Below the pieces are notes generated by a model, which was not told the DNA's origin, did not search any database, and was given only the letters and a program-made list of their open reading frames with translations. Below, piece by piece: positions 1,517 through 40,757 of a stretch of 40,803 nt of DNA (positions are counted from its first letter, which is position 1; each line of letters opens with the position of its first letter). The translations under genes were made by a program, and so were the position numbers. The stretch lies in the NCBI GenBank assembly GCA_036394495.1, contig DASWEZ010000084.1, positions 1 to 40,803 on the forward strand, in the 5' to 3' direction. This DNA comes from Burkholderiales bacterium (lineage in GTDB: Bacteria > Pseudomonadota > Gammaproteobacteria > Burkholderiales > JACQAP01).

Positions 1517-1673
1517 AATGCCTTCCTTTCTCTGCAGGGTAAAGGAAACTATCCGGCAAGAATGCCTGCAGCATAAGTGTGATGCCGCGAGGGTGGTAGT
1601 GCAAGGGGAAAGAGCGGTGAACAGTGAACTGCGAACAGTAATTGTCGATCTTCGGACGGAAGCGCAGCCTTAT

Positions 1674-1708
1674 CTACCGATCACCGATCACCGATCACCG
1701 ATCACGAG
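1674..1708. repeat. Tandem heptamer array (CTACCGA, TCACCGA x3, TCACGAG) overlapping the stop codon of the NHL gene
   Basis: Five contiguous 7-nt units read directly. A second short array, GTGAACA/GTGAACT/GCGAACA, lies at 1615-1639. The two arrays pair only weakly (CGGTGA/TCACCG). Confidence 0.85.
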
Positions 1709-2667
1709 CGAGTTCTGACGAGCTTGCGCAGCGTCTGCAGTCCCGGCGGAATTTCCTTGTTCGGGTAGATCTGCGGCCACGCGGTGTAGGAAACCTCGCC
1801 GACGTAGATGTCGCCATGGGAATCCACGGCCATGCCGTGGGGTGCGACGAACTGGTCGGGGCGGTCGTAGCCGGCATGCGCGGCGCCGAAGCGCGAAACC
1901 AGGTTGCCTTCATTGTCGACGATGCTGATGCGCGGCCCGAGGTTGGGGACTTCACGATTGACCGGCATGGTGGGTCCTATCTCGCCGATGTAGCACAATG
2001 GCTCCTTCTTCGCTTCCATGCACATGCCGCAGGGCCGGTGCAGGTTGTGCCACTCGGTTTCGTAGTTACCTTCTCCGTCGAACACCTGCACGCGATGGTT
2101 CTCGCGGTCGGCGACGTAGACCCAGCCATCGGGATCGCAGCAGACGTTGTGCGGGATGTTGAATTCGCCCGGACCCGTGCCGGCTTCACCCCACGACTTC
2201 AGTAGTTTGCCGTCGGGGGAATACTTGTGCACGCGCGAATTGCCGTAGCCATCGGAGATGTAGATATCGCCGCGCGGGGAAAGCGCGGTATGCGTGCAGC
2301 GGTGGAAAGGTTCGCCGCTCATGTAGGGCGACGGCTTGCCGGGAATGCCGATCGTCAGCAGTACATTGCCCTCCAGCGTGCACTTGCGCACGCTGTGGTC
2401 GCCGTCGTCGGTGCAGTACAGCGATTCATCCGGCCCGATGTGCAGGCCGTGCGCGCGATTGAACACGCCTTCACCCCAGGATCGCAGGAATTTTCCGTCG
2501 CGATCGAACACCATCATGGGATGCTCGCCGCGGTTGAAGACATAGACCCGGTCCTTGAGATCGACTGCCACTGCCGCTACGTCCCGGAACGACCAGCCGT
2601 CGGGCAGCTTCGCCCAGTCGGAGATGACTTCGTATTTGAATTTGCCGCTGCCGAGCGTTGTTGCCAT
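1702..2667 (-). CDS. NHL-repeat six-bladed beta-propeller; homologue of peptidyl-alpha-hydroxyglycine alpha-amidating lyase (PAL domain of PAM)
   Basis: 321-aa ORF with ATG at 2665-2667 and GAGGAG upstream. No signal peptide. The segment SDGYGNSRVHKYSPDGKLLKSWGE...PHNV...VADRENHRVQVF closely matches my memory of the animal PAL motif DGYCNSRIVQFSPSGKF..QWGE...PHSL...VADRENGRIQCF. Confidence 0.75.
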   Translation of the reverse strand: MATTLGSGKFKYEVISDWAKLPDGWSFRDVAAVAVDLKDRVYVFNRGEHPMMVFDRDGKFLRSWGEGVFNRAHGLHIGPDESLYCTDDGDHSVRKCTLEGNVLLTIGIPGKPSPYMSGEPFHRCTHTALSPRGDIYISDGYGNSRVHKYSPDGKLLKSWGEAGTGPGEFNIPHNVCCDPDGWVYVADRENHRVQVFDGEGNYETEWHNLHRPCGMCMEAKKEPLCYIGEIGPTMPVNREVPNLGPRISIVDNEGNLVSRFGAAHAGYDRPDQFVAPHGMAVDSHGDIYVGEVSYTAWPQIYPNKEIPPGLQTLRKLVRTRS

Positions 2668-2683
2668 GGCGTGCTCCTCTTGC

Positions 2684-2790
2684 CGTGAATATCGTGAATG
2701 TCGTAGATGCCGTTAAAGCATCATTCAGATTAACTAGACCTTAGAACGGCATTCACGTCTTCTTGCTTCACGACATTCACGACATTCACG
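2684..2790. repeat. Hairpin element with GTGAATRTC tandem-unit arms
   Basis: Left arm cgtgaatatcgtgaatgtcg (2684-2703); right arm cgacattcacgacattcacg (2771-2790); 19/20 complementary. Inner stem atgccgtt/aacggcat. The right arm contains the stop codon (2786-2788) of the DUF4387 gene. Confidence 0.85.
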
Positions 2791-3133
2791 GCATTCCGCG
2801 TAGCTGGGGTTTTAGCGAATCCGGAATTTCCAGCTCGAACGATAGCACTCTCGCCGACAGCGATTTTCCATAGTTATCCAGGCATAGACTGCGCGACACG
2901 CCGCCGCCAAGCGCGCCTTCGGCGACGAAGTTCAGAGCCTGCAATCCATCCACGTCGTAGCGCGTAACCTTTCCCGTAACGACGCCGGCGTAGTGCGCCT
3001 TGAATTTTTCGGCGGTCAGTTGTTCCTTGAGATAGGGATATAACGCGGGGGCGTAGGCGATCACCGAGATGTTCGATGTATTGCCCTTGTCGCCTGAGCG
3101 ACAGTGGGCGAGGTGTTGCAGCATTACTTTCAT
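2786..3133 (-). CDS. DUF4387 small protein (partner of AtuA/DUF1446)
   Basis: 115-aa ORF. The motif HCRSGDKGNTSNISVIAY is typical of DUF4387. It lies immediately downstream of a DUF1446 gene on the same strand. Confidence 0.7.
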   Translation of the reverse strand: MKVMLQHLAHCRSGDKGNTSNISVIAYAPALYPYLKEQLTAEKFKAHYAGVVTGKVTRYDVDGLQALNFVAEGALGGGVSRSLCLDNYGKSLSARVLSFELEIPDSLKPQLRGMP

Positions 3134-3179
3134 TGTCGTTTCCCGTTATCGAAGCGGCGTGCAATCAGAAATATATTAG

Positions 3180-3302
3180 CCGTGACGCGTGACGGTCGTG
3201 ACGGCGTGACCCTCCTTACCCCAACCCTCTCCCCCGGTGACGGGGGAGAGGGGGCTCTAGGTTCTTACCCCGTCACGTCGTCACGATCGTCACGCGTCAC
3301 GG
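3180..3302. repeat. Composite hairpin element: GTGACG-unit outer arms enclosing a CCCTCTCC/GGAGAGGG inner hairpin
   Basis: Outer arms 3180-3210 (ccgtgacgcgtgacggtcgtgacggcgtgac) and 3271-3302, about 29/32 complementary. Inner perfect 12-bp stem 3225-3236/3241-3252 with loop GTGA. Confidence 0.9.
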
Positions 3303-3309
3303 CCTTCCC

Positions 3310-4972: not shown

Positions 4973-6160
4973 ATGCTGAAGTTGACCGCCGCGCGCGCCG
5001 CGCGTCTGCTGGTGTTGTCCTTTGCGTTCGCCGCGTCGGCTGCATCGGCACAATCCACGATTCGAATCGGATGGCTGTCGTCGCTGACCGGCCCGCTGTC
5101 CTCCGCGGCCATAGCGGAAAACCAGGGCGTGCAGTTCGCGGTCGACGAAATCAACGCGGCCGGCGGCGTCAACGGCCGTAAACTCGAACTCATCACCCGC
5201 GACACCAGCGGCGAGCCGACCAAGGCCGTGAACCTGGCCAAGCAACTCGCGTTCGTCGACAAGGTGGACTTCATCATCGGGCCAGTGAATTCCGGCGAGT
5301 CGCTCGCGACCGTGCCGATCGTCGCCAAGGCGGGCATCCCCAATCTCATTATCGGCACCATCGACGAACTGGTCGATGCGCAAAAATTTCCGCTCGCATT
5401 CCGCGCCATCAATACCAACAAGCAGTGGATCGAGGCGGCGAACGACTACGCGCTCAACGTCCTCAAGAGGAAAAAAATCGCGGTTATCGGCGATACCTCC
5501 GGTTACGGCACTGCCTCTTCGAAGGTCGCGCAGGATCTTCTCGACAAAGCCGGCGTGAAGCCGGTGTATGTGGCGCTGGTCGACCCGAACAAGACCGACC
5601 TGACCGACGAACTGAACAAGGCGAAGGCCGCCGGCGCCGACGTGATCATGCCGTGGTCGGCCGCGACGGGATTGCTCGCGCGCCTGTTCAACACCCGCGG
5701 CGATATGGGCTGGGACGTGCCGATCGTCGGCCATCCGGCAATGATGGCGCCGACGGTCAGGCCGCTGCTGAACAAACCCGAGTACTGGAAAAACGCCTTT
5801 GCGGCGGGCTACCTGAGCACGACGTACGACGCGAAGGGCAAGCTGCCGCCGCGGACCCAGGCGCTGATGGAAAAGATCCGGCCGAAACTCGGCAAAGGCG
5901 AGATCGACTTCATGTTCTGGTGGATCGCGCTCGGCTACGACACCGTGAAGATCGTGGAGCACGCCGTGAAAACCGCGGGCTCCACCGATGCCGCGGCGAT
6001 CGGCAAGGTGCTGGAAAACACCAGGGACTTTCAAGGCTCCTACGCGACTTACACATGGAGCAAGGAAAACCGCAACGGCTATCCGGATCATGCGATCGTG
6101 GTGAATGTGGCCGGCAGTTTTAAGGATGGAAGTTTCTTGGCCGCGCCCACCTCACCCTAA
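4973..6160 (+). CDS. ABC transporter periplasmic substrate-binding protein (LivJ/K-like, Peripla_BP_6)
   Basis: Start moved to ATG 4973, preceded by GGAGGAGG. Signal peptide MLKLTAARAARLLVLSFAFAASAASA. IRIGWLSSLTGP.. and GGVNGRKLELITRD motifs. Followed by liv-type permease and ATPase genes. Confidence 0.85.
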   Translation: MLKLTAARAARLLVLSFAFAASAASAQSTIRIGWLSSLTGPLSSAAIAENQGVQFAVDEINAAGGVNGRKLELITRDTSGEPTKAVNLAKQLAFVDKVDFIIGPVNSGESLATVPIVAKAGIPNLIIGTIDELVDAQKFPLAFRAINTNKQWIEAANDYALNVLKRKKIAVIGDTSGYGTASSKVAQDLLDKAGVKPVYVALVDPNKTDLTDELNKAKAAGADVIMPWSAATGLLARLFNTRGDMGWDVPIVGHPAMMAPTVRPLLNKPEYWKNAFAAGYLSTTYDAKGKLPPRTQALMEKIRPKLGKGEIDFMFWWIALGYDTVKIVEHAVKTAGSTDAAAIGKVLENTRDFQGSYATYTWSKENRNGYPDHAIVVNVAGSFKDGSFLAAPTSP

Positions 6161-6322
6161 CCCTCTCCCTCCGCCCGCGGGCGGAGAGGGAACTTGATTG
6201 TGGTTGCGGTCGGCACAATAGGCAGGTGTTTCTGATTGGCGGACCTCTATTCAGATGCATCCTTAAAACAGATTGCTTTTTTCGCTCCCTCTCCGCCGGG
6301 GGAGAGGGCCGGGGTGAGGTGG
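6147..6322. repeat. MITE-like element with 22-nt terminal inverted repeats (CCACCTCACCCTAACCCTCTCC / GGAGAGGGCCGGGGTGAGGTGG)
   Basis: The terminal repeats at 6147-6168 and 6301-6322 are 19/22 complementary. Each end also forms its own CCCTCTCC..GGAGAGGG hairpin. The left repeat contains the binding-protein stop codon (6158-6160); the right repeat abuts the livH ATG (6323). Confidence 0.85.
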
Positions 6323-7183
6323 ATGTTCGTTGCTCTTATCACAGGTTTGGCCACAGGGGCCTTATACGCCTCCGCGGCGCTCACATACAACGTGATGTTC
6401 TCGACCTCGAAGGTGTTGTCGGTGACCACCGGCCACATCTCGATGCTCGGCGGTATCTTCGGTGCGTGGTTCATTTCGACGCTGGGCTGGCCGATCCCGG
6501 TCGCGCTGTTGGGCTCGATGGTCGTCGGTGCATTATTCGGGCTGCTGACCGACCTGATCGCAATTCGCCGCGTGCTGGCGCGCAGCGACGAGCATCTGTG
6601 GCTGCTCTCCACCCTGGCGCTGGCCACCATGGTGCAGCAGGCCGCGGGGTTGTGGTGGGGCACCGAGCCAAAGCCGTTCCCGCGCCTGATACCGCAGGAT
6701 TTCTCGGCCGGACTGGGCGACCAGAAATACTGGCTGCCGATCGCCATCGCGATCCTGCTCGCCGTCGCGCTCGAAGTGTTCTACCGGCGCACGCTGTACG
6801 GCAAGCTGTTCGTGGCGATGTCGGAAGATGCTTTCGCCGCGCGCGCGCGCGGCATCCCGACCGGGCGCATCCGCTCGATGTCGTACGTGATCGCCGGCGC
6901 GATGGGCGGACTGGCCGGATTCGCGGCGGGACAGTTGACCTTCGCCTACTTCGCGCTCGGATTGACGCTGACCCTGAACGGTTTCATCGCGCTCGCCGTC
7001 GGCGGACTCGGCAGCAATGTCGGCGCGCTGGTCGGCGGCGCGGCGCTCGGCATCCTCAGCGCGGTGGCGACTTATTTCGTCGGCGGCGAGTATCAGCAGA
7101 CCATTTCGGTAGGGTTGCTGATGGTCGTATTGCTGCTCAAGCCGGCGGGCCTGTTCGGCAGCCAGAGCGTGCGGCCGGTATGA
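6323..7183 (+). CDS. livH: Branched-chain amino acid-type ABC permease (LivH family)
   Basis: Start trimmed to ATG 6323 because the longer ORF runs through the repeat element. 286 aa, multi-pass hydrophobic. The N-terminus aligns with the LivH pattern ..GL..G..YA..AL. Confidence 0.8.
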   Translation: MFVALITGLATGALYASAALTYNVMFSTSKVLSVTTGHISMLGGIFGAWFISTLGWPIPVALLGSMVVGALFGLLTDLIAIRRVLARSDEHLWLLSTLALATMVQQAAGLWWGTEPKPFPRLIPQDFSAGLGDQKYWLPIAIAILLAVALEVFYRRTLYGKLFVAMSEDAFAARARGIPTGRIRSMSYVIAGAMGGLAGFAAGQLTFAYFALGLTLTLNGFIALAVGGLGSNVGALVGGAALGILSAVATYFVGGEYQQTISVGLLMVVLLLKPAGLFGSQSVRPV

Positions 7184-8184: not shown

Positions 8185-8933
8185 CCTTGGCCGCGCGCGA
8201 CATCACCAAGCGCTTCGGCGGATTGACCGCGTTGGCGCAGGTATCGCTGGAACTGAAACCCGGCGAAGTGCACGGCCTGATCGGGCCGAACGGGAGCGGC
8301 AAGACTACTCTGCTGAATCTGTTTTCCGGCTATTACCGTCCGGACGGTGGAAACATCGTCATCGACGAGACCGAAATTTCCGACGCCACGGTGCAGAAAC
8401 GCGCCGGCCTCGGCGTTGCGCGCACTTTCCAGAAGCCGCGGCTGTTGCCCACGCTCTCCGTGCTGGACAACGCCATGCTCGGCGGCTGGCGCGACGCGCG
8501 CGCCGGTTTCCTCGCAACCGCATTTTCACTGCCGCAGGTGAAAGCCGACGAGCGCGAATTGCGCAGCCGCGCCGAGGAACTGCTGCATGGTGTGGGCCTG
8601 TCGCATGCAATCGGCCGGCGCGCGAATCTCCTCGAACATGCCGAGCAGCGCTTCCTGGAGATCGCTCGCGGCCTGGCGCAGCGGCCGCGCTTCCTGTTGC
8701 TGGACGAACCGGCGGGCGGGCTGACCCCGGCCGAGATCGAACACCTCGGCGCGGTGATCCGCGTCATGCGCGAGTCCGGTGTCGGCGTCCTGCTGGTGGA
8801 GCATCACACCGATTTCGTGTTTCGCATTTCCGATCGCGTGACCACGCTGGACGTCGGGGCCGTGATCAAGCACGGCACGCCGGACGAAGTGAAACGCGAT
8901 CCGGAAGTCATTCGCGTGTACCTGGGGGCTTAG
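8181..8933 (+). CDS. livG: ABC transporter ATP-binding protein (LivG family)
   Basis: ATG 8181 overlaps the livM stop (ATGA). Walker A GPNGSGKTT; LLLDEPAGGL. C-terminal ..DPEVIRVYLG is typical of LivG. Confidence 0.85.
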   Translation: MTLAARDITKRFGGLTALAQVSLELKPGEVHGLIGPNGSGKTTLLNLFSGYYRPDGGNIVIDETEISDATVQKRAGLGVARTFQKPRLLPTLSVLDNAMLGGWRDARAGFLATAFSLPQVKADERELRSRAEELLHGVGLSHAIGRRANLLEHAEQRFLEIARGLAQRPRFLLLDEPAGGLTPAEIEHLGAVIRVMRESGVGVLLVEHHTDFVFRISDRVTTLDVGAVIKHGTPDEVKRDPEVIRVYLGA

Positions 8934-8946
8934 AGTGTTCTATTCC

Positions 8947-9142
8947 GCCAATTCGCGAATGAAAACCCGACGAGAATCGGCGTCATGCTGTGTTCCGAGT
9001 CCTCGCCGTGGGGCCTGCCACTGTCGAGGACTCGCGCCTTGCCTGACGCCGATTTCGCAGGTTTTCTACGCTATGCGGGTCCGCCGACGCCCGAGTTCTC
9101 ATTGCAGTCGTCTGAACATTGCGCGCGTCTTCGCGAATTGGC
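8947..9142. repeat. Inserted element bounded by a perfect 13-bp inverted repeat, lying between livG and livF
   Basis: GCCAATTCGCGAA (8947-8959) and TTCGCGAATTGGC (9130-9142). Internal 9-bp stem GAGTCCTCG/CGAGGACTC (8997-9005/9025-9033). Confidence 0.7.
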
Positions 9143-9158
9143 CGAACAGGACACTCAC

Positions 9159-9893
9159 GTGAGGACCGACAAACCGCTGCTGAAAGTGAGCGAGCTGCAC
9201 GTGGCTTACGGCAAGGCCGAGGTCGTGCACGGCATTTCCCTGGAAGTGCGCAACGGCGAATTCACCGTGATGCTCGGCCGCAACGGCGCGGGCAAGAGCA
9301 CCACGCTGCACGCGATTTCGGGCCTGATTCCGAAAAAGTCCGGCCGCGTCGAATTCGACGGTCGCGACCTGACCGACGCGACGCCGCGCGACATCGTGCG
9401 CGCCGGCATAGTCCAGGTGCTGGAAGGCCATCGCGTCTTCACCACGCTGACGGTCGAAGACAACCTGCTCATTGGCACTTATGCGCGCAGTCCCCATGGC
9501 GACCGCGCGAAGCTCGGGCGTATCTATGATCTGTTTCCGGAACTCCGGGAAAAGCGCAACGATCCCGCCTCGCGCCTGTCAGGCGGGCAGCAGCAGATTC
9601 TCGCGGTCGCGCAAGGCGTGATCGGCGAACCGCGCCTGCTGATTCTCGACGAACCGTCGGCCGGACTGGCGCCGCTGGTCATCGACCGGATTCTTGCGGT
9701 GGCCGCGGAACTGCGCAAAAGCGGCATGGCGATCCTGCTGGTGGAACAGCTCGTGGAAAAGGCGTTGCGCCACGCCGGCTATTGTTACCTGGTGGAGACC
9801 GGCCGCGTCGCCGCCGCCGGCACGCCGAAAGAAATCCAGGCAAGCGACGTATTGCATCAGACTTACCTCGGCGGTCACGCCGCTGCAGGTTGA
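9159..9893 (+). CDS. livF: ABC transporter ATP-binding protein (LivF family)
   Basis: Homology begins at LLKVSELHVAYG. The most plausible start is GTG 9159; the ORF-track start at 8985 would add ~58 non-homologous residues read through the inserted element. Walker A GRNGAGKST; LSGGQQQ; LILDEPS. Confidence 0.75.
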   Translation: MRTDKPLLKVSELHVAYGKAEVVHGISLEVRNGEFTVMLGRNGAGKSTTLHAISGLIPKKSGRVEFDGRDLTDATPRDIVRAGIVQVLEGHRVFTTLTVEDNLLIGTYARSPHGDRAKLGRIYDLFPELREKRNDPASRLSGGQQQILAVAQGVIGEPRLLILDEPSAGLAPLVIDRILAVAAELRKSGMAILLVEQLVEKALRHAGYCYLVETGRVAAAGTPKEIQASDVLHQTYLGGHAAAG

Positions 9894-9920
9894 ATCTCAC
9901 ATCAAAGCACGGCAAATTAA

Positions 9921-10110
9921 ATCTCACCACGAAGGCACGAAGGACACGAAGTGGCACGAAGAAAAGCGAAGACAAGAAGGGAGGTTGGATCGGCTATGAC
10001 CATGCTTCCACGAACAAGAGATGCCGGCGGATCGGCCGTGCGACCCCCCATGTTCAATCTTGGTCTTGCCCTTCTTCGTGTTCCTTCGTGTCCTTCGTGT
10101 CTTCGTGGTG
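9921..10110. repeat. CACGAAGG-family hairpin element, copy 1
   Basis: Left arm atctcaccacgaaggcacgaaggacacgaagtggcacgaagaaa (9921-9964); right arm cttcttcgtgttccttcgtgtccttcgtgtcttcgtggtg (10071-10110); unique ~105-nt centre. Confidence 0.9.
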
Positions 10111-10159
10111 CGCATTTCGGTATGGTTTTTTAAGAATAATAAATAAGAGAGGGGAAGCG

Positions 10160-11215
10160 ATGGCCGCATCGACACGCTGGAAAAACAGGCCCGAGGGTTC
10201 GACCTGGGGCGATTTCGGTCCGGACGATCAACTCGGACGGCTGAACCTGCTGACCCCCGAGAAAGTGAAGCAGGGCATCGCCGAGGTGAAGGAGGGCCTG
10301 GTCTTCTGCCTGAGCCTGCCGCTGGATTATCCAGGCGGCAACCTGCTCAACCCGCGGCGCCATCCGCCGATCCTGCGCCCAACCTTGCGCAACGGCCGGC
10401 CGAACATGGTTTACGTCGTGCAGCGCGACAACCCGGACGCCACCGACGTCATCAACGACGACGCGGTGATCCTGCACCTGCAGTACTCGACGCAGTGGGA
10501 CAGCCTGGCGCACGTCGGCCAGTTGTTCGACGCCGACGGCGACGGCAAGCCGGAACCGGTGTTCTACAACGGCTATCGCGGCGGCAAGGAGATCTCCGGG
10601 CCGACCGATCCGGACGATGCCGGGGCCATCGGCAACGTGCCCGCGAAATCCACGACGGCGGTGCATGCGCTGGGCGTCGAGAACATGGCGGTGAACTGCG
10701 TGCAGGGCCGCGGCGTGATGATCGACCTGCATGCGCACGTCGGCCGCGCCGGCACGGCGGTCGGCTACGACCAGCTCATGCGCATCATCGAGAAGGACAA
10801 GGTCGTCGTCGAAAAAGGCGACATGGTCTGCCTGCACACCGGTTTCGCGCAGATGATCCTGGAAATGAACAAGCAGCCCGACCAGCACAAACTGGGAAAT
10901 TCCTGTGCGACGCTGGACGGGCGCGACAAGAAGCTGCTGCAGTGGATCACGGATTCCGGGCTGGTCTCGCTGATCGCGGACAACTACGCGGTGGAGGCGC
11001 ATCCGGCCACCAGCCACGACGGCTGCTGCGCGACATTGCCGCTGCATGAACACTGCCTGTTCAAGCTCGGCGTGAACCTCGGCGAGATCTGGCACCTGAC
11101 GCCACTCGCCAACTGGCTGCGCGAACACAAGCGTTCGCGTTTCCTGCTCACCGCGCCGCCGCTGCGCCTGCCCGGCGCGGTCGGCTCCCCCACCACACCC
11201 GTGGCAACCGTTTAA
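10160..11215 (+). CDS. Cyclase-family protein (PF04199-like; kynurenine formamidase / isatin hydrolase superfamily)
   Basis: Start trimmed to ATG 10160, preceded by an AT-rich stretch and GAGAGGGGAAG. 351 aa. The family-like motif LQYSTQWDSLAH occupies the place of the canonical HxGTHxDxPxH. Confidence 0.65.
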   Translation: MAASTRWKNRPEGSTWGDFGPDDQLGRLNLLTPEKVKQGIAEVKEGLVFCLSLPLDYPGGNLLNPRRHPPILRPTLRNGRPNMVYVVQRDNPDATDVINDDAVILHLQYSTQWDSLAHVGQLFDADGDGKPEPVFYNGYRGGKEISGPTDPDDAGAIGNVPAKSTTAVHALGVENMAVNCVQGRGVMIDLHAHVGRAGTAVGYDQLMRIIEKDKVVVEKGDMVCLHTGFAQMILEMNKQPDQHKLGNSCATLDGRDKKLLQWITDSGLVSLIADNYAVEAHPATSHDGCCATLPLHEHCLFKLGVNLGEIWHLTPLANWLREHKRSRFLLTAPPLRLPGAVGSPTTPVATV

Positions 11216-12045: not shown

Positions 12046-12132
12046 CGTGAATATCGTGAATATCGTAAAAGGCGAAACCGACCGCATTTGGGCTTGGCAA
12101 GACTGCTCTTCACGACATTCACGGTATTCACG
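12046..12132. repeat. Hairpin element with GTGAATATC tandem-unit arms (same family as 2684-2790)
   Basis: Left arm cgtgaatatcgtgaatatcg (12046-12065); right arm cgacattcacggtattcacg (12113-12132); 18/20 complementary. Confidence 0.85.
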
Positions 12133-13631: not shown

Positions 13632-13710
13632 ACCAGCCGTCCTGAGGACGGCATTAGGAGCGTTGACACAGATACCCTACGTGCCTAGCACGTCGGAGTA
13701 CCCTTTTAGG

Positions 13711-13868
13711 ACACAGAGGAAGGGCAAGAGAGGGCACAGAGGAAAATAAAAGAGAGAGAAATTCGGCAGCCCGGGTGTCATTGTGACCACCACGTCCACT
13801 ATTCCCGACGCCTGCATTTCTCCCTTTCCGGTTTTCTCTGTGTTCTCTGTGCCCTCTGTGTCTCTGTG
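13711..13868. repeat. Hairpin element with CACAGAGG/AGAGGG purine-rich arms
   Basis: Left arm acacagaggaagggcaagagagggcacagaggaaaa (13711-13746); right arm ttttctctgtgttctctgtgccctctgtgtctctgtg (13832-13868). Pairing is imperfect; the best block is agagggcacagag/ctctgtgccctct. Confidence 0.75.
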
Positions 13869-13901
13869 TTGGGTGTTGATTTTTCTTAAGGACAACAAAA
13901 A

Positions 13902-16013
13902 ATGAAAGATGTATTGCGCGAATCGCTGCGCACGGTATTGAACCCGAAGTCCGTCGCAGTCATCGGCGCTTCCGAGAATGAAAATAAAATCGGCGGCCGC
14001 CCGTTGCTTTATCTGTCCCGCCACGGCTTCAAGGGCAAGGTCTACCCGATTAATCCGAAGCGAGCGGAGATCCAGGGCTTCAAGGCCTACCCGTCGCTTG
14101 CCGATGTGCCCGACGCGCCTGAAGCGGCCATCGTCGCGCTGGCCGGCGACGCGGCCATCGAGGCGGTCGAGCAGTGCGCGAAGCGCGGGGTGAAAACCGC
14201 GGTGGTGATGACTTCGGGGTTCGGCGAGACCGATCCGGTCGGCGGCAAGGCCAAGGAAAAGCGCATGCGCGATGCGGCGCACGCGGCGGGGATGCGCATC
14301 GTCGGACCGAATTCCCAGGGGCTGGCCAATTTCGGCACCGGTGCGATCCTGTCGTTTTCGACCATGTACATCGAAGCGCCGCCGATGGACGGTCCGATCG
14401 CCGTGGTCAGTCAGTCCGGGGCAATGAGCGTGGTGCCCTACGGCTTGCTGCGTGCGCGCGGCCTCGGCGTGAGGCATTCGCATGCCACCGGCAACGATGC
14501 CGACGTGACCGTCTCCGAGCTGGCCTCGGTGGTCGCCGAAGACCCGGACCTGAAATTGCTGTTGCTCTATCTGGAAAGCATCAACGACCCGTTCTTTCTC
14601 GCCGAGACCGCGCGCATCGCCCACGAGCGCAACCTGCCGGTCATCGCGTTGAAATCCGGCCGCACCGCCGCCGGCCAGGAAGCGGCGAAGTCGCACACCG
14701 GGGCGCTGGCAAACGAGGACAGGACGGTCGACGCTTTCCTCGCCAAACACGGCATCTGGCGCGCACGCGACACCGCCGAACTGGTGGCCAGTGCGGAGAT
14801 GTACCTGAAAGGCTGGAAACCGAAGGGCCGCAGGCTGGTGGCGATCAGCAATTCCGGCGCGGTCTGCGTGATGGCAGCCGACGCCGCCAGCACGGTCGGC
14901 ATGCCGCTGGCCAGACTCGCAGAGGGAACGCGCGCGGAACTGGGCAAGATCCTGCCGGGCTTCGCAACGACCACCAATCCGATCGACATCACCGCGGCAC
15001 TGCTGACCAACAGCGGGCTGTTCTCGCAGATCCTGCCCGTGCTTGCGCGCGATTCCGCGGCCGATGCCTTCCTGATCGGCATTCCGGTCGCAGGACAGGG
15101 TTATGACGTCGAGGCCTTTGCCCGCGATTCCGCGGATTTCGCCAAGGCGACGGCCAAGCCGCTGGTCGCGGCGATTCCGCAACCCAATATCGCCGCGCGT
15201 TTCAAGGCGCATGACCTGCCGGTGTTTCCGACCGAATACGAAGCGGTTGCGGCCCTGAACCAGTTCCTGTCGCATGGGGAACTCATGCAGGCGTCGAAGG
15301 GCAGGTCGGCTGCCAGCACGCGCGCGCCGGCTGCGGCTGCAACGACTTCCGCGATGCTGAACGAGGCGGACAGCCTGAAGTTGCTGGCCGATGCCGGCGT
15401 ACCGGTCGTGAAGTTCAAACTATGCCGCAGCGCCGACGAAGCGGCAGCAGCGGCTGCGGAACTGTGCGGTCCGGTTGCGGTGAAAGGCTGCTCGGCCGAC
15501 GTCGTACACAAGAGCGAGCTCGGCCTGGTGCGCCTGGGCTTGAACGACGCTGACCAGGTACGCAAGGCATTCGCGGAAATCCAGCAGGCGCTGGCGAATC
15601 ATGGTGCCCGCTTCGACGGCGCCATCGTCGCGAAAATGGCTCGCGGGCGCCGCGAAATGATGATCGGCGCGCGCGTCGATCCGGTGTTCGGCCCGGTGGT
15701 ACTGGTCGGCGATGGCGGGAAATACGTCGAGGCAATGCCGGACGTGCAATTGCTGATTTCGCCTTTCACCGCGGCTGAAGTGAAGCAGGCCCTGGGACGC
15801 CTGCGCATTGCGCCGCTGCTCGCCGGCGTGCGCGGAGAGCCGGCGCTGGACGTGGAGGCATTCTGCGAGGCGGCGCTCGCCGTCTGCCGGCTGATGACGA
15901 ATCCGCAGTCCGGGGTGGTGAATCTGGATCTGAACCCGGTGCTGCTTGGCGGTAAAGGCGAGGGCTGCGTGGCGCTCGACGCGGTGGTCTATAGAAGAGT
16001 CGTGACGGCGTGA
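13902..16013 (+). CDS. ADP-forming acyl-CoA synthetase (acetate--CoA ligase [ADP-forming] family; CoA-binding, ligase-CoA and ATP-grasp domains)
   Basis: 703 aa. N-terminal SVAVIGASENENKIGG CoA-binding motif; central succinyl-CoA-synthetase-like region; C-terminal ATP-grasp (VAVKGCSADVVHKSELGLV). Confidence 0.85.
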   Translation: MKDVLRESLRTVLNPKSVAVIGASENENKIGGRPLLYLSRHGFKGKVYPINPKRAEIQGFKAYPSLADVPDAPEAAIVALAGDAAIEAVEQCAKRGVKTAVVMTSGFGETDPVGGKAKEKRMRDAAHAAGMRIVGPNSQGLANFGTGAILSFSTMYIEAPPMDGPIAVVSQSGAMSVVPYGLLRARGLGVRHSHATGNDADVTVSELASVVAEDPDLKLLLLYLESINDPFFLAETARIAHERNLPVIALKSGRTAAGQEAAKSHTGALANEDRTVDAFLAKHGIWRARDTAELVASAEMYLKGWKPKGRRLVAISNSGAVCVMAADAASTVGMPLARLAEGTRAELGKILPGFATTTNPIDITAALLTNSGLFSQILPVLARDSAADAFLIGIPVAGQGYDVEAFARDSADFAKATAKPLVAAIPQPNIAARFKAHDLPVFPTEYEAVAALNQFLSHGELMQASKGRSAASTRAPAAAATTSAMLNEADSLKLLADAGVPVVKFKLCRSADEAAAAAAELCGPVAVKGCSADVVHKSELGLVRLGLNDADQVRKAFAEIQQALANHGARFDGAIVAKMARGRREMMIGARVDPVFGPVVLVGDGGKYVEAMPDVQLLISPFTAAEVKQALGRLRIAPLLAGVRGEPALDVEAFCEAALAVCRLMTNPQSGVVNLDLNPVLLGGKGEGCVALDAVVYRRVVTA

Positions 16014-16153
16014 CGATCGTGACGACGTGACGAGGTAAGTTCAAGACCAAAACGCGACTCGCAATCGCGAGTTCGTCGCATCTGGCAATAGGCTTTTAGC
16101 GTCCCTCTGCACATACGTCGTCACGCCGTCACGTCGTCACGTTCGTCACGGCG
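16001..16153. repeat. Hairpin element with GTGACG tandem-unit arms (same family as 3180-3302)
   Basis: Left arm cgtgacggcgtgacgatcgtgacgacgtgacgagg (16001-16035) supplies the last codons and the TGA stop (16011-16013) of the synthetase gene. Right arm 16116-16153 consists of cgtcac units. Confidence 0.9.
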
Positions 16154-18066: not shown

Positions 18067-18171
18067 GCAGAGGGAAGAGACGAGAGGAAAGAGGAAAGAG
18101 GAAAGGAAGTACCTGGTTTCCCGTCTTTAACCTTTCTCTTTCCTCTCGCCTCTTTCCTCTTTCCTCTCTGC
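18067..18171. repeat. Hairpin element with GAGGAAA tandem-unit arms, between convergent genes
   Basis: Left arm gcagagggaagagacgagaggaaagaggaaagaggaaagg (18067-18106); right arm cctttctctttcctctcgcctctttcctctttcctctctgc (18131-18171); 24-nt loop. Confidence 0.9.
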
Positions 18172-19787: not shown

Positions 19788-20069
19788 GCTTGTCTATGCG
19801 CGTGGAATGGGGCCGGCACGCATATTGTGAACGTGTTGGAGCCGGTTCAGGAAGCGATTCTCGCGGGGGAAAACCACCGGCCGACGCACCGCCGGTTGCG
19901 GCGGACCATGACGCGCGCGTCACAATTTCGCGGCGCTTCCCTATGAAAAACGTGCATTCTCTGATTGACAACGCACTCTCCTCTCGGCATTCTCTGCTCG
20001 CCGTGCCTTTGCTTCTGGCAAGGCAACGCAAATTTCAGATACGTGCAAACTCAAATTGGAGGCACCACG

Positions 20070-20477
20070 ATGGCCGCAAAGAAGAAGACCGCGAAGAAAC
20101 CCGTCAAGAAAGCCGTGAAGAAAGCCGCGCCGAAGAAGGCTGCTGCGAAGAAACCCGCGAAGAAGGCTGCTGCGAAGAAGCCTGCAAAGAAGGCTGCTCC
20201 GAAGAAAAAGGCATCCGGCGCCAAGCGCAAGCCGAATGCGGCTTTCATGAAGCCGATGACGCCCAGCGCGTCGCTCGCCGCGGTAATCGGCAGCACGCCT
20301 GTGCCGCGCACCGAGGTCACCAAGAAACTGTGGGCCTACATCAAGAAGAATGACCTGCAGGACAGCAAGAACAGACGCAACATCAACGCCGACGACAAGC
20401 TGAAGGAAGTCTTCGGCGGCAAGAAGACGGTGTCGATGTTCGAGATGACCAAGCTCGTCGCTGGTCACCTCAAGTAA
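20070..20477 (+). CDS. Histone-H1-like (KKAA-repeat) / SWIB-MDM2 domain fusion protein
   Basis: ATG 20070 with GGAGG at 20058-20062. The N-terminal 55 aa are Lys/Ala/Pro repeats. The C-terminal ~80 aa (FMKPMTPSASLAAVIG..RTEVTKKLWAYIKKNDLQD..INADDKLKEVFG) match the SWIB domain pattern. Confidence 0.8.
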   Translation: MAAKKKTAKKPVKKAVKKAAPKKAAAKKPAKKAAAKKPAKKAAPKKKASGAKRKPNAAFMKPMTPSASLAAVIGSTPVPRTEVTKKLWAYIKKNDLQDSKNRRNINADDKLKEVFGGKKTVSMFEMTKLVAGHLK

Positions 20478-22917: not shown

Positions 22918-23129
22918 TTCACCGCAAAGGACGCAAAGGACGCAAAGGGACGCGAAGGAACGCGAAGGAAAAGCAGCAGCGAAGGAAGGAAACCGGGACA
23001 AAATACTGTGGGGATAGGTTTCAATATGGCTGCTGGCATTCAGCGCGACGAATCTTCGGCCAAGAATTGATCGCGAAATCTCCTTGTTACCGTATTTCCT
23101 TCGCGTCCCTTTGCGTCCTTTGCGGTGAA
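22918..23129. repeat. Hairpin element with GCAAAGGAC/GCGAAGGAA tandem-unit arms of unequal unit number
   Basis: Left arm 22918-22971 has about 5 units (ttcaccgcaaaggacgcaaaggacgcaaagggacgcgaaggaacgcgaaggaaa). Right arm 23095-23129 has about 3 units (tttccttcgcgtccctttgcgtcctttgcggtgaa). Confidence 0.85.
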
Positions 23130-24539: not shown

Positions 24540-24596
24540 ATAGGGATTAAACGTTTTCCCCGCAGATACCCTCGCGTAGCGTGGTGTACCCTTTTG

Positions 24597-24771
24597 GGCG
24601 CACAGGCGCAAAGGGTACGCAAAGAGAAGCAATACGAGAGAACGGTTCGTTGACGTTAATTTTGACATCGGCTACCAGGAATTGTGTCCCATGAGCGCCG
24701 TTCTCCAGTTGTATCCCTCTCTGCACTTTTGCTTTCCTATGCGCTTCCTCTGCGCCTTTGCGCCTCCGCGG
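24597..24771. repeat. Hairpin element with degenerate GCGCAAAGG-type arms
   Basis: Left arm ggcgcacaggcgcaaagggtacgcaaagagaagcaa (24597-24632); right arm 24717-24771 (..tgcgcttcctctgcgcctttgcgcctccgcgg). Partial complementarity only. The upstream module cagataccct..gtacccttttngg is shared with 13669-13710. Confidence 0.65.
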
Positions 24772-26788: not shown

Positions 26789-26816
26789 GGACTACGCCGA
26801 AACCTTTTTGGTCTAA

Positions 26817-27007
26817 ATCTCACCACGAAGGCACGAAGGACACGAAGGTTCACGAAGAAAAACTTAGGTGTGAAGGAATTTCGCTTCTGCGCAACTTTCG
26901 TCGCATCTCCGTGTATCGCGGATGTCTATCACCGACCGTTGTCACCCTTCCGTTCTTTTGCATTTCTTCGTGCCACTTCGTGTCCTTCGTGCCTTCGTGG
27001 TGAGAAT
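26817..27007. repeat. CACGAAGG-family hairpin element, copy 2
   Basis: Left arm 26817-26860; right arm 26963-27007. The reverse complement of the right arm matches the left arm of copy 1 at about 43/44 positions. The centre is unrelated to copy 1. Confidence 0.9.
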
Positions 27008-27102
27008 TTGACCAGGCTTTCGGGTTATAAGCAGCCTATTGGGTATATTGGCGGCCTGCTGATCGTGGCAGGCCGTTGTGTTATTTACCGAAGGAGAAGT
27101 CG

Positions 27103-33176: not shown

Positions 33177-33411
33177 ATTCTCACCACGCGCCGCAAGCGG
33201 CACACACCCCTGCGGGTGCATATGAGTGTTCCCTTGAGGCACGAAGGACACGAAGTTGCACGAAGAAGGGCAAGATCGGCATGGCATTGCATGGCATTGT
33301 GTTGTATATAGTTATTTGACCATGGCTGACGCGCTATCGTGGCGATGTGCAGACGCGGAATGACTCTCCCCCGGTCTTCTTCGTGTTCCTTCGTGTCCTT
33401 CGTGGTGAGAT
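33177..33411. repeat. CACGAAGG-family hairpin element, copy 3, with a 48-nt insertion in its left arm
   Basis: The left arm is split: attctcaccacg (33177-33188) and aggcacgaaggacacgaagttgcacgaagaaggg (33237-33270). Right arm 33376-33411. The insertion at 33189-33236 carries two mini-hairpins. Confidence 0.85.
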
Positions 33412-35428: not shown

Positions 35429-35504
35429 CAAAACCGCGGACTTCCCGCGGCAATCTCGTTCCACAGACGCAAGACTCTCTCCCGAGATAGTGCGCTCTGT
35501 TTCC

Positions 35505-35530
35505 GGGGAGGCGCTCGCCTCCCCGTTTTT
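35505..35530 (+). terminator. Rho-independent terminator downstream of the SDR gene
   Basis: GGGGAGGCG/CGCCTCCCC stem (35505-35524), followed by G and TTTTT (35526-35530). Confidence 0.6.
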
Positions 35531-38406: not shown

Positions 38407-38441
38407 AAAAAAAGGGCGGCCTGATGGCCGCCCGTTTTTTT
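38407..38441. terminator. Bidirectional rho-independent terminator (hemerythrin on +, ahpD on -)
   Basis: A7 (38407-38413), GGGCGGCC (38414-38421), loop TGAT, GGCCGCCC (38426-38433), G, T7 (38435-38441). Confidence 0.85.
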
Positions 38442-38460
38442 GATGCGAAGCGCTTTGCAG

Positions 38461-39012: not shown

Positions 39013-39062
39013 TTTCAATCTCCTTTCAATGTGTTCGATCGGGCTCCGGCAGGTTGCTAAGC

Positions 39063-39086
39063 GGCCCGGCTCCGCAGAGCCGGGCC
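39063..39086 (-). other. Stable intercistronic hairpin between ahpC and ahpD
   Basis: GGCCCGGCTC (39063-39072), loop CGCA, GAGCCGGGCC (39077-39086); a 10-bp perfect GC-rich stem with no U tract. Confidence 0.6.
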
Positions 39087-39092
39087 CGCCGA

Positions 39093-39632
39093 TCAGGCAG
39101 CCTTGAGGAACTCGTCGCCCTTCTTCCAGTTGCACGCGCACAATTCGTCGGTCTGCAGCGCATCGAGCACGCGCAGGACTTCCGCGGGATTGCGTCCCAC
39201 GCTCATGTCGTTGACCGACACGAAGCGGATCACGCCTTCCGGATCGACGATGAACGTGGCGCGCAGAGCGACGCCTTCATTCTTGTCCAGTACACCCAGC
39301 GCGGAGGATAGCTCGCGCTTGATGTCTGCCAGCATCGGGAAGGGCAGATCCTTCAGATCGGCGTGGTTGTTCCGCCACGCCAGATGCACGAATTCGCTGT
39401 CGATCGATGCGCCATAGATGACGGCGTCGCGGTCGTTGAATTCGGTATTGAGTTTGCCGAACGCGGCAATTTCGGTCGGGCAGACGAACGTGAAGTCCTT
39501 CGGCCAGAAGAACAGCACTTTCCACTTGCCGGCATTGGACGCCTGGTCGATGCGCTGGAACGCCTTGTCAGGATCGATCGAAACGACGGCGTTGAGGTCA
39601 AATGCGGGAATGCGGTCACCGATGGTCAGCAT
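39093..39632 (-). CDS. ahpC: Peroxiredoxin AhpC (AhpD-coupled type)
   Basis: 179 aa with AAGGAG 6 nt upstream. Peroxidatic FTFVCPTE; C-terminal [10 protein letters not shown]. Confidence 0.9.
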
Positions 39633-39693
39633 GCTTGGCTCCTTTGAAAAGTGGTCTGGAAATGTTGTACGCGGCCACTTTGCGCCGTCCCGG

Positions 39694-39742
39694 TCGATCG
39701 ATAAAGCGAGAAAAATCGTTTATACTGATCGATAAATACGAT
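39694..39742. promoter_or_regulatory. Probable OxyR (LysR-type) operator in the ahpC-oxyR divergent region
   Basis: AT-rich tract with repeated GATCGATAAA (39694-39703 and 39725-39734) and CGAT-N12-ATCG dyads, positioned between the two divergent genes. Confidence 0.45.
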
Positions 39743-39764
39743 CAACGCCTCAGACCCCGATACC

Positions 39765-40706
39765 ATGGCCGCACTCCCCTCACCGCGACAACTGGGCTAC
39801 CTGGTGGAAGTCGCCGACAAGCTGAATTTCCGCGCGGCGGCCGAAGCAAGCTTCGTCACCCAGTCGACGCTGTCCGCCGGCATCAAGGAACTCGAATCCC
39901 TGCTCGGCGTGGAACTGGTCGAGCGCGATCCAAGGGGTGTGCGGCTGACTCCGGCCGGCGAGGAAGTGGTGCGGCGCGCCCGCACCATCCTGGCTGCGGC
40001 TCAGGATCTGGTGGATTCGGCGCGCGATGCCGGCGCGCCGCTTGGCGGCATTTTCCGGCTGGGCGTCATCCCGACGGTTGCGCCGTTTCTGCTGTCCGGC
40101 GTGATGTCCAAGATCAGGGACGAATACCCGGAACTCAAGCTCCATCTTCGCGAGGATCTCACCGAAAGGCTGCTGGAGAAGCTGCGCGCGGGAAGTCTCG
40201 ACGCGGCGTTGATCGCGTTGCCCTTCGAGACGGCGGAGTTGACGGTGATCGAACTGTTCCGCGATGAATTCTGGTTTGTTGCCCGCCAGGACGATCCGCA
40301 CGCCAAAAAGAAGGAAATGCTGGTGCGCGACCTCGAGCCCGGCAGCGTGGTGTTGCTGGAAGAGGGACACTGCCTGCGCGATCACGCCATCGCGGCTTGC
40401 GGTTCCCGGGGCGCAAAAGCCAGGGCGTTGCTGGAAGCGACCAGCCTGACGACGCTGATCCAGATGGTGGAGGGCGGATTGGGCGTGACGCTGCTGCCGG
40501 AACTGACCATCAAGGCCGGCATCCTCAAGGGAACCAAACTGATCGCCAGGCCGTTCTCGACCCAGGTTCCCGCTCGCACCGTCGCGTTAGTCGCCCGGCC
40601 CGCGGGCGCCAGGCGCGTGGACGTCGAAATGCTCGCGTCGTTTTTCCAGAAACACTACCGCGAACAATCCAAAGCCCGCCCCGCCTCCCGCCTCAAGACG
40701 CGTTAA
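39765..40706 (+). CDS. oxyR: LysR-family redox regulator OxyR
   Basis: 313 aa. N-terminal HTH. The redox pair context ..EEGHCLRDHAIAAC.. is as in OxyR (Cys199/Cys208 equivalents). Divergent from ahpCD. Confidence 0.8.
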   Translation: MAALPSPRQLGYLVEVADKLNFRAAAEASFVTQSTLSAGIKELESLLGVELVERDPRGVRLTPAGEEVVRRARTILAAAQDLVDSARDAGAPLGGIFRLGVIPTVAPFLLSGVMSKIRDEYPELKLHLREDLTERLLEKLRAGSLDAALIALPFETAELTVIELFRDEFWFVARQDDPHAKKKEMLVRDLEPGSVVLLEEGHCLRDHAIAACGSRGAKARALLEATSLTTLIQMVEGGLGVTLLPELTIKAGILKGTKLIARPFSTQVPARTVALVARPAGARRVDVEMLASFFQKHYREQSKARPASRLKTR

Positions 40707-40720
40707 TGCGGATTACACCC

Positions 40721-40757
40721 AACGCAGAGGCGCAGAGGACGCGGAGGACGCAGAGGA
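40721..40757. repeat. Left arm of a GCAGAGGAC-unit element (partner arm lies beyond the window end)
   Basis: acgcagaggcgcagaggacgcggaggacgcagaggaa immediately after the oxyR stop. Only one arm is visible. Confidence 0.6.

Follow-up and report, generated by a model that had tools for sequence, protein, structure and literature searches.

The 40,803-nt window analysed here (contig DASWEZ010000084.1 of GenBank assembly GCA_036394495.1) is ordinary chromosomal DNA of an uncultured Burkholderiales lineage of soil and sediment, whose best relative reaches 94% amino-acid identity on the coenzyme A (CoA) ligase. Its genes encode AtuA, a Liv-type ABC transporter, IclR, a thiolase-like protein, the CoA ligase, OmpA/TolA-like proteins, an MFS transporter, RraA, HAD, DsrE and an aldehyde dehydrogenase. 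About one third of the intergenic gaps in this lineage hold a hairpin repeat, which is the subject of this study. The window contains 11 complete elements and one cut by the window end (Table 1), all with the layout (unit)n – unique centre – (reverse-complement unit)n. An element consists of two mutually inverted arms of 25-55 bp, each a run of three to five slightly irregular tandem units of 7-10 bases that is mirrored in the other arm, separated by a centre that is unique to each copy in the window.

A first-pass annotation, made from the DNA sequence, had listed thirteen sites, and we inspected all of them at the sequence level. Tandem Repeats Finder (TRF) detected paired arrays at every listed site, and an inverted-repeat finder gave arms of 24-53 nt, 80-100% complementary, with an arm-to-arm distance of 29-168 nt. 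When compared with 100 dinucleotide shuffles, the fold energy of all 11 complete elements was far below that of the shuffled controls (z from -3.5 to -13.5), and arm complementarity is thus far above chance. A stricter pipeline, in which TRF arrays of period 6-12 were locally aligned to the reverse complement of the next array, found no inverted array pair in any of 30 shuffles but 8 in the window, which contains 34 TRF arrays against a shuffle mean of 7.8. The shared architecture proposed for these sites is therefore borne out. One site, at 1615-1708, had been included as a related thirteenth but is not a member, since it consists of two unrelated arrays, (GTGAACA)3 and (ACCGATC)4. Most of the coordinates stand; three elements proved longer than annotated (13663-13875, 24558-24771 and 33177-33411), a small foreign insert splitting the first unit of each.

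The element sequences were base-for-base identical across independent ENA, JGI, NCBI and Logan assemblies, and related elements were present in long-read contigs of 0.4-1 Mb, which excludes an assembly artefact. A pattern created by chance or by metagenome assembly might be suspected from the origin of the matches to the most widespread arm, of type CACGAAGG, since all 108 that were listed come from metagenome-assembled genomes (MAGs) or other uncultured bacteria. However, the shuffles gave no pair at all, z values were as low as -13.5, four independent assembly sources agree, related elements stand in long-read contigs, the elements respect gene boundaries and orthology, and analogous GGGAATC pairs are found in isolate genomes. 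This explanation is effectively refuted already.

Table 1. Hairpin elements of the window and one non-member site (arms given as 5' arm / 3' arm; z, fold energy against dinucleotide shuffles).
Feature	Position	Context	Arms	z	Remarks
Non-member: arrays (GTGAACA)3.3 and (ACCGATC)4.3	1615-1708			-0.1	+ strand fold no better than shuffles
CGTGAATRT-type	2681-2796	between two minus-strand genes	2681-2704 / 2770-2793, 24 nt, 96%	-7.5	
CGTGACG(N)-type	3179-3303		3179-3210 / 3272-3303, 32 nt, 94%	-13.5	centre contains nested REP-like hairpin CCCTCTCCCCC-GGTGAC-GGGGGAGAGGG
CACGAAGG-type, termini TCTCACC...GGTG	9918-10113		9925-9977 / 10058-10110, 53 nt, 81%	-9.1	unit lengths 8-9-10-12 mirrored between arms
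CGTGAATRT-type	12046-12132		12046-12069 / 12109-12132, 24 nt, 88%	-5.2	
CACAGAGG-type, flanks GTTGAC...GTTGGG	13663-13875			-5.8	first unit split by 36-nt mini-insert, 13672-13707
CGTGACG(N)-type	16000-16153		16006-16032 / 16127-16153, 27 nt, 93%	-6.0	5' arm overlaps stop codon of CoA-ligase gene
GAGGAAA-type	18067-18171	between convergent genes	18069-18103 / 18133-18167, 35 nt, 80%; 20 nt, 100%	-4.5	
CGCAAAGG-type, termini TTCACC...GGTGAA	22918-23129		22 nt, 100%; 22932-22960 / 23096-23124, 29 nt, 100%	-7.7	
Degenerate CGCAAAGG/CGCAGAGG-type	24558-24771			-3.5 (insert included)	first unit split by mini-insert, 24566-24595
CACGAAGG-type, best-preserved copy	26809-27014		26809-26860 / 26963-27014, 52 nt, 90%	-11.3	
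CACGAAGG-type	33177-33411		inner arms 33240-33268 / 33376-33404, 29 nt, 90%	-4.5	outermost unit split by ~50-nt insert (~33189-33238); outer TCTCACCACG pairs with CGTGGTGAGA in the fold
CGCAGAGG-type, left purine-rich arm only, cut by window end	40721-40803				TRF 40722-40757, 4.1 copies

The arm of the CACGAAGG-type elements is nearly identical in uncultured bacteria of more than 10 phyla. TCTCAC followed by three CACGAAGG units was found at more than 108 MAG loci from many phyla, and the exact 22-mer TCTCACCACGAAGGCACGAAGG in more than 108 stretches of a species-representative genome collection. Among the matches listed, the record titles name Verrucomicrobiota, Planctomycetota, Hydrogenedentota, Acidobacteriota (Holophagaceae), Binatia, Gemmatimonadota, Chlamydiota, Kiritimatiellia, Aminicenantes, Lentisphaerae, Thermodesulfobacteriota and alpha-, beta-, gamma- and deltaproteobacteria as hosts, with a locus GC content of 40-72%. 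Most of these loci also have the partner arm ...CCTTCGTGCCTTCGTGGTGAGA, separated from the first by a locus-specific centre. The third unit, past the forced match, is 62-92% conserved, and conservation falls to background level beyond it. The three CACGAAGG-type copies in the window have units of 8, 9, 10 and 12 nt, a series that recurs as a mirror image in the second arm. These mirrored lengths, together with the conservation across phyla, show that the CACGAAGG arm is a conserved sequence of ~30-45 nt and no free-running array. The same kind of scan returned many cultured isolates for GGGAATC and two or three for GTGAAT, a type largely limited to the window's own lineage in the genome collection. 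The order of the scan is therefore not the reason why the CACGAAGG matches are all uncultured, and the CACGAAGG family seems to be almost confined to lineages of which no member is in culture. A full-text literature search found the arm sequences in none of the papers covered. As the first-pass annotation had advised, Rfam was also searched; scans at the gathering score and at E-values up to 1 gave no matching family, the only hits being chance microRNA-like matches, below gathering score, on the GAGGAAA hairpin (18067-18171).

Five of the units that had been told apart at first (CACGAAGG, CACAGAGG, GCAAAGGAC, GCGCAAAGG and GCAGAGGAC) are transition variants of CRCRRAGG. This could be followed at one orthologous site in relatives, whose stretches compared with the window are designated by L numbers, many of them anchored by neighbouring proteins. 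An element bounded by GCGTTGAC...GTTGGG stands upstream of the CoA-ligase gene in the window (13663-13875) and is kept at the orthologous position in L109-L135. The units are of type CACAGAGG in the window and L109-L111, CGCAAAGG in L112, L113 and L115, and CGCAGAGG in L123 and L126, while L130 and L132 have CACGGAGG-like 3' arms. Mixed and mismatched intermediates occur among the relatives, and the units change in concert. Because these variants replace each other at one site, we assign the purine-rich units to a single superfamily, C-R-C-R-R-A-G-G. CGTGACG(N), CGTGAATRT and GAGGAAA are unit types separate from it, and GTGATCA, CGAGGTT, GGGGAAG and CACCAAGG are additional types found in relatives. 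The earlier statement that the architecture is conserved while the sequence is not thus fails as regards the sequence: a CACGAAGG arm of ~30 nt recurs exactly in the stretches counted above, and the five "different" units are variants of one.

The elements are insertions into intergenic gaps, including gaps within operons. Synteny with the relatives is good, which makes the gaps directly comparable, and pairs of filled and empty orthologous gaps were common, many beyond the examples named here. The gap 9893-10160 is reduced to ~20 nt without an element in the closest relatives, L109 and L113; its orthologue holds a CGCAAAGG-type element in L145 and, in L146 (~6716-6779), about nine CACGA(A/G)T units forming a single arm that lacks an inverted partner. 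Similarly, the gap of the 12046-12132 element measures only ~20-30 nt in L110, L160, L162 and L159, that of the 22918-23129 element 47 nt in L113, and the 26809-27014 element is missing from the same gap in L113, L116, L123, L121 and L122. Within operons, an element separates atuA from the gene of its ferredoxin-like partner (fdx) in the window (3179-3303) and, independently, in L139, and another occupies the livH-livM gap in L179; in more than 20 relatives, atuA and fdx overlap or nearly abut, and livH and livM overlap or abut. A given gap may also hold different families. The atuA-fdx gap contains a GTGACG-type element in the window, a CACAGAGG-type one in L191 and a CACGAAGG-type one in L139, and the gap of 16000-16153 holds GTGACG-type, CACGAAGG-type or GGGTGAGGG-type hairpins among relatives. 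Strain L191 encodes an identical ferredoxin-like protein, and its atuA 3' end is recombined beside the CACAGAGG-type element. At the GTGAAT element 2681-2796, the two arms of L191 differ from those of the window by minus one and plus one unit, the unit-number polymorphism that had been predicted.

Whole elements also occur inside or as copies of one another: in L098 a complete CGCAAAGG-type element is nested within the 3' arm of a CACGAAGG-type element, and two loci of L169 hold copies that are nearly identical even in the centre. Solo arms exist as well, and most verrucomicrobial and planctomycete copies are of this kind. No target-site duplication was recognisable in five filled/empty comparisons, where the relatives were only 80-90% identical and the flanks had changed. 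A search for centres shared between non-orthologous copies found none except those of the two L169 copies and of short-loop copies in deltaproteobacterial and Binatia MAGs. Arms flanking a gene were sought in a 3.8-Mb sample, and no arm-bounded gene resembling a transposase was found. In that sample, a single pair of CACGAAGG purine and pyrimidine arms, at L055 851-2700 on a 220-kb contig of a Verrucomicrobiae MAG, stands 1.8 kb apart and encloses one 455-aa open reading frame (ORF), which has no significant Pfam match and shows an Rx4H (HEPN-like) motif by eye. Considered as an autonomous copy, this ORF was judged from its motif to be cargo or coincidence. Among possible vectors, searches with the arm returned one marginal plasmid match, no phage match and 6 IMG/VR stretches.

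The order of the two arms is strikingly one-sided. In all 11 complete elements the purine-rich, G>C arm comes first, as the first-pass annotation had stated, and this extends to 46 of 46 pairs of about eight unit types when protein-anchored loci of relatives, which are unbiased for elements, are added to the window. CRCGRAG arrays had the purine arm before the pyrimidine arm within 600 nt 91 times and the reverse order once, at two adjacent elements. All strongly skewed pairs taken together were purine-first in 102 cases versus 3, and a GTGAAT scan gave + before - in ~20 loci with one exception. Either order was found for the weakly skewed units (GTTCCA/TGGAAC and AATCCTGT/ACAGGATT) of Binatia and deltaproteobacterial MAGs. 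Two details of the original description need amending. Its label of a GTG form followed by a CAC form holds as purine-rich or G>C first, but not in its wording, since the 5' arms of the CACGAAGG type carry CAC. That the inverse layout never occurs is true of the tandem-array elements in the window, but a C-rich-first hairpin does exist at 6147-6322, a palindromic REP-type dimer (described below). Because X...rc(X) is its own reverse complement, every descendant of a copy keeps the layout, so that polarity within a family follows from common descent and needs no selection; the weakly skewed families, moreover, show either order. The bias across families is real, resting on few independent families. 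As a speculation, it could reflect selection against a C-rich arm emerging unpaired from RNA polymerase, where it would offer a Rho loading site.

We counted region identities in four orthologous pairs. Arms were identical at 354/370 positions (95.7%), centres at 316/368 (85.9%) and the flanking coding DNA at 1083/1209 (89.6%). Centres could be aligned only between orthologues, and no longer once the flanking genes were ~87% identical. At such a divergence neutral sites are near saturation, so unalignable centres are expected from drift, and we dropped the idea of a hypervariable centre as a special feature. Across the centre, purine content drops from 0.71 to 0.30, which suggests decayed inner units; the outer units of the arms are perfect and the inner ones degraded. 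On their 5' side the elements are flanked by A-rich sequence, on their 3' side by T-rich sequence. A transition mismatch between the arms is a wobble (G:U) when read on one strand and a clash (A·C) when read on the other. Arm mismatches numbered 27 G:T and 33 A:C in gaps between plus-strand genes and 24 of each in gaps between minus-strand genes, and the minimum free energy (MFE) of the + versus - strand folds was not tied to the gene strand. With mismatches equal and MFE unlinked to the genes, nothing indicates selection on the sense transcript; wobble intermediates were accordingly dropped as a sign of constraint at the RNA level, and the selection on structure suggested earlier is unsupported in the sense of a sense-strand RNA. 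The complementarity of the arms is kept up without strand preference, either on the DNA itself or for the transcripts of both directions.

With regard to genomic placement, all elements lie between called genes and each fills most of its gap. The 5' arm starts from 13 nt before to ~50 nt after the upstream stop codon, and the 3' arm ends 14-74 nt ahead of the next start. Gaps with elements were co-directional in 73 cases, convergent in 19 and divergent in 9, without a link to particular gene families; REPs and the arrays of Xanthomonas have a similar bias. Since copies are found inside operons, between tightly coupled genes, efficient termination is unlikely. An identity as intrinsic terminators was rejected on this ground and because the flanks are only moderately T-rich (0.31-0.35) and a terminator scan does not pick the elements, although such consensus promoter/terminator scans are uninformative for long hairpins. 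Classical intrinsic terminators, with a GC stem of 8-9 bp, a 4-nt loop and a T-run, are present at 35504-35525 and 38414-38433, the second being bidirectional, so the organism is not reliant on long hairpins for termination. The GTTGAC at the start of the 13663 element was considered as a promoter and discarded, as it has no -10 partner at the right spacing. Directly after the preceding stop, at 13636-13652, there is a small hairpin, GCCGTCC-TGA-GGACGGC. It persists at the orthologous positions of L109-L130, where its stem is changed on both sides (e.g., GCCGGCC..GGCCGGC, GCCGATC..GATCGGC), and it may be the real 3'-end structure of the upstream gene. The placement of the elements also has practical consequences: gene callers put starts inside arms, as for the thiolase-like gene, called from position 12088 in the 3' arm of the 12046-12132 element, and such elements can break short-read assemblies.

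The elements are themselves the target of smaller inserts. A mini-insert of ~30-36 nt, built as ATACCCT – short palindrome – GGAGTACCCTTT(T), always lies between positions 5 and 6 of the CRCRR^AGG unit and always has the same orientation relative to the purine arm. A regular-expression census found 9 independent sites in 13 matches, four of which are the window copy at 13672 in other assemblies; the variant at 24566-24595 was read by eye. The sites are the two in the window (13672-13707 and 24566-24595), three in L111, and those in L114, L127, L132, L373 and L377. In its strict site and orientation, with no visible duplication, the mini-insert recalls palindrome-associated elements of the IS200/IS605 type (Y1 transposase), and it also recalls the small dispersed repeats of cyanobacteria. 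A second small insert (…CACCCCT-N-GGGKG.A.ATGA.TG…), at ~33189-33238, splits the outermost unit of a CACGAAGG-type arm, and related pieces interrupt 3' arms in L013 and L127. The CACGAAGG-type 3' arms of the deltaproteobacterial or Binatia-type MAGs L011, L016, L095, L098 and L103 repeatedly carry a small palindromic repeat, TTGGTTGCGG-N-CCGCGCTAGG, inserted within their last unit or immediately behind it; a duplicated ...TCCTYYGTGGTGAA end comes next.

Repeats of other kinds were also seen in the window. A unit like those of classical repetitive extragenic palindromic (REP) sequences (CACCTCACCC..CCCTCTCCC-loop-GGGAGAGGG) forms an inverted dimer at 6147-6322, resembling a REP doublet forming hairpin (REPIN) with its C-rich side first, in the gap after a gene for a periplasmic binding protein; another copy of the unit is nested at 3213-3256 within the 3179-3303 element. 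The gap of the dimer holds a purine-first CGAGGTT-type element in L109 and measures ~20 nt in L113. At 8933-9156, between two ABC ATPase genes, a 224-bp insertion with 27-nt terminal inverted repeats (GAGTGTTCTATTCCGCCAATTCGCGAA / TTCGCGAATTGGCCGAACAGGACACTC) is missing in all relatives compared, where the gap is ~0-13 nt; it looks like a miniature transposable element with inverted repeats (MITE) of another family. Finally, a coding tandem repeat of period 27 (also 12 and 15), GCGAAGAAACCCGCGAAGAAGGCTGCT, occupies 20081-20207 within the ORF 19965-20477 and would encode a lysine/alanine-rich repeat in a small protein.

The first-pass annotation could name no described repeat family that matches. 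This no longer holds, as Rehm et al. (2015; PMC4692102) reported pairs of convergent GGGAATC arrays from Xanthomonas that are laid out, and placed next to genes, in the same way, and these are the closest described kind. Xanthomonas genomes carry 70-75 convergent pairs of GGGAATC heptamer arrays each, always one array per strand; in X. campestris and X. citri the arrays are ~90% intergenic, mostly between co-directional genes and rarely between divergent ones, with the G-rich array on the coding strand, close to the upstream ORF and within 50 bp after its stop (PMC4692102). They are mostly transcribed, and their position is kept between species while unit numbers differ and the single or paired type is kept (PMC4692102). 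We found the layout (GGGAATC)n – unique centre – (GATTCCC)n at loci of Luteimonas, Rhodanobacteraceae and Gemmatimonadaceae, so this unit, too, crosses phyla. The present elements share with the Xanthomonas arrays the short units (7-10 nt here, 7 there), the convergent arrays with the G-rich arm first and a unique centre, the intergenic, mostly co-directional location with the G-rich array shortly after the stop, and the variation of unit number between relatives at a kept position (L191 against window 2681-2796, and the orthologous series). They differ in that most units (CRCRRAGG, CGTGACG, CGTGAAT, GAGGAAA) lack the GGG run of GGGNATC, that irregular arms are conserved as wholes of 30-45 nt with terminal TCTCACC...GGTGAGA, and that several unit families coexist in one genome. 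Insertional polymorphism, nesting and cross-phylum identity were not reported by Rehm et al. (PMC4692102).

Other known repeats resemble the elements in part. By definition, a REP unit spans 20-40 bp, is imperfectly palindromic and carries an unpaired tag, GTAG or CGTC, at one end; for CGTC-type REPs no transposase has been identified either (Di Nocera 2013, PMC3733652). The elements are like REPs, bacterial interspersed mosaic elements (BIMEs) and REPINs in being high-copy intergenic palindromic repeats, in forming inverted dimers that make long hairpins with a spacer, in their preference for gene 3' ends and operon interiors, and in the presence of several families per genome and their presence or absence between relatives. 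Bertels and Rainey are said to have linked REP/BIME/REPIN elements with RAYT transposases in 2011. Unlike REPs, which are specific to species or genera, the CACGAAGG arm is the same across phyla; the units are of 7-10 nt, non-palindromic and untagged, and the elements end in TCTCACC, TTCACC, GTTGAC or GCCGTGA. The earlier view that they do not derive from a single REP consensus was therefore correct. With bacterial MITEs (Correia, RUP, Nezha) they have in common terminal inverted repeats, a non-coding centre, insertion polymorphism, nesting and multiple copies. However, their centres are unrelated between copies outside the short-loop subfamily, whole-element likeness is limited to the L169 pair and the short-loop copies, and no parent insertion sequence with the same ends was found in the 3.8 Mb, where one arm-to-arm interval (L055) exceeds 600 nt. 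Foldback elements also have a variable middle, set between long inverted terminal repeats that consist of tandem subrepeats; since they are eukaryotic, the likeness is by analogy only.

Small dispersed repeats nested in cyanobacterial heptamer repeats were reportedly described by Elhai in 2008. The cyanobacterial short tandemly repeated repetitive (STRR) sequences are similar in that their arrays are targeted by very small site-specific inserts, here the ATACCCT...GTACCCTTTT mini-insert. Like the STRR/TAACTGA repeats (PMC4679880), the elements are intergenic arrays of ~7-nt units that distant phyla have in common although no vector is known. Direct order prevails in those arrays, whereas ours are paired and inverted: the TAACTGA repeats of cyanobacteria and Beggiatoaceae comprise 169 direct sets and one indirect (MacGregor 2015, PMC4679880), and Nostoc has few paired repeats (Rehm 2015, PMC4692102). 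Integron attC sites have the form R''-L''...L'-R' with GTTRRRY cores and border promoterless cassettes beside an integrase. Such an identity was rejected, because the arms contain no cores of this kind and the genes are syntenic housekeeping genes shared with relatives lacking the elements. CRISPR and uptake-signal readings were rejected on anatomy.

Taken together, these results are best explained, with a probability that we put at about 0.5, by a superfamily of REPIN/MITE-like dispersed palindromic insertions with tandem-unit arms, in which the arms are kept by slippage and conversion or by constraint and the effects on transcripts are REP-like. The elements would propagate at the DNA level, REPIN/MITE-like in effect, through a putative mobilising mechanism. 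The arms would stay homogeneous through slippage within an arm combined with gene conversion of one copy by another, or because their sequence is constrained, and the fixed polarity within a family would be inherited from its founder copy. Any transcript crossing an element, in either direction, should form a long hairpin of purine arm and pyrimidine arm. Its likely REP-like effect would be protection of the upstream mRNA 3' end, RNase III-type processing or partial attenuation, and not efficient termination. Several points weigh against this interpretation. No transposase, target-site duplication or autonomous copy was found in the searches described above. Centres are unique except between orthologues, unlike the copies of a classical MITE, which is copied over its whole length, and drift explains this only if most copies are old. 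Some copies are kept at one site across genus-level divergence, which is not obvious for a purely selfish element. The arm is essentially not on plasmids or phages, with only the 6 IMG/VR stretches, so that no cross-phylum vector is evident. Lastly, every RNA effect of the elements is one that we infer.

Among the other explanations, we considered that the arms are generated in place, either by slippage followed by an inverted template switch or by extension of both 3' ends of a break from one short template before joining. The 91:1 polarity, the unique centres, the filled sites without a target-site duplication, the solo arms, the single-arm array of L146 in an orthologous gap, the unit numbers that change between strains, and the perfect outer and degraded inner units with their purine gradient would all fit such an origin. 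However, the irregular 8-9-10-12 spacing and the terminal TCTCAC common to several phyla point to copying of a fixed sequence, the nested complete elements and the same-centre copies of L169 resemble movement of whole elements, and we know of no candidate enzyme; we consider this origin unlikely. A more radical form of it is a long shot. In it the arms would be "written" rather than moved: where intergenic DNA is broken or nicked, an enzyme would use one short template to extend the two 3' ends, which would then be joined. If true, the writing step would account for the X...rc(X) polarity, the identical arms in unrelated phyla, the unique centres, the absent target duplications and the solo arms, but no telomerase-like or repair-scar-like process of this kind is known to us in bacteria. 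Less radical and more likely than written arms, though still tentative, is the view that the elements are foldback-like mobile hairpins of a new class that spans phyla, moved by an enzyme yet to be discovered.

Alternatively, the units could be protein-binding sites on double-stranded DNA or RNA, set in opposed arrays, with the hairpin potential as a by-product. The binding factor could act on the nucleoid or on DNA topology, as gyrase and IHF do at BIMEs; a receptor like those for uptake signals and a regulator that binds RNA are further candidates. Arms that are more conserved than the coding flanks, the same 30-nt arm across phyla, the solo arms, the strand-independent symmetry of the arms and the AGG core retained in all purine units, which is Shine-Dalgarno-like, agree with this possibility. 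It is nevertheless improbable, since at least four unrelated unit types in one 40-kb window would need several factors, the spacing of 7-10 bp is irregular, elements are gained and lost among close relatives regardless of gene function, and no protein is implicated. Locus-specific cis-regulatory RNA hairpins (attenuators, processing sites or translational control), with selection acting on the structure of the sense transcript, might be expected from the very stable hairpins, their location 0-50 nt after stop codons, the A-rich 5' and T-rich 3' flanks, and the one element kept at the same site in many relatives with changes in both arms. Yet the gene strand shows no excess of G:U-compatible mismatches, orthologous arms contain A·C mismatches, close relatives differ in presence and in the family that fills a gap, and there is neither a link to gene families nor an Rfam match; this explanation is quite doubtful. 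G-quadruplex or i-motif simple-sequence repeats, as proposed for the GGGNATC arrays of Xanthomonas and Nostoc, would match the layout and gene-adjacent placement of the arrays of Rehm et al. and the G>C composition of the 5' arms. Most units (CACGAAGG, CACAGAGG, CGTGACG, CGTGAAT, GAGGAAA) have no GGG run, however, so a canonical G-quadruplex cannot be the common denominator and inverted pairing is the shared feature; we give this last explanation very little credit.

The elements are a variant of a known but barely studied kind of repeat, the convergent tandem-array pairs. REPs, REPINs and MITEs shape operon expression, genome stability and evolution, and are usually species-specific and studied in few cultured bacteria. 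The present elements tie the isolated case of GGGAATC in Xanthomonas to a much wider phenomenon, for which the G-quadruplex cannot be a general explanation. With their arm-specific conservation, unit slippage and in-place switching of units, they lend themselves naturally to work on concerted evolution. Any mobilising enzyme or host factor that reads the arms, should one exist, would be widespread and so far undescribed.

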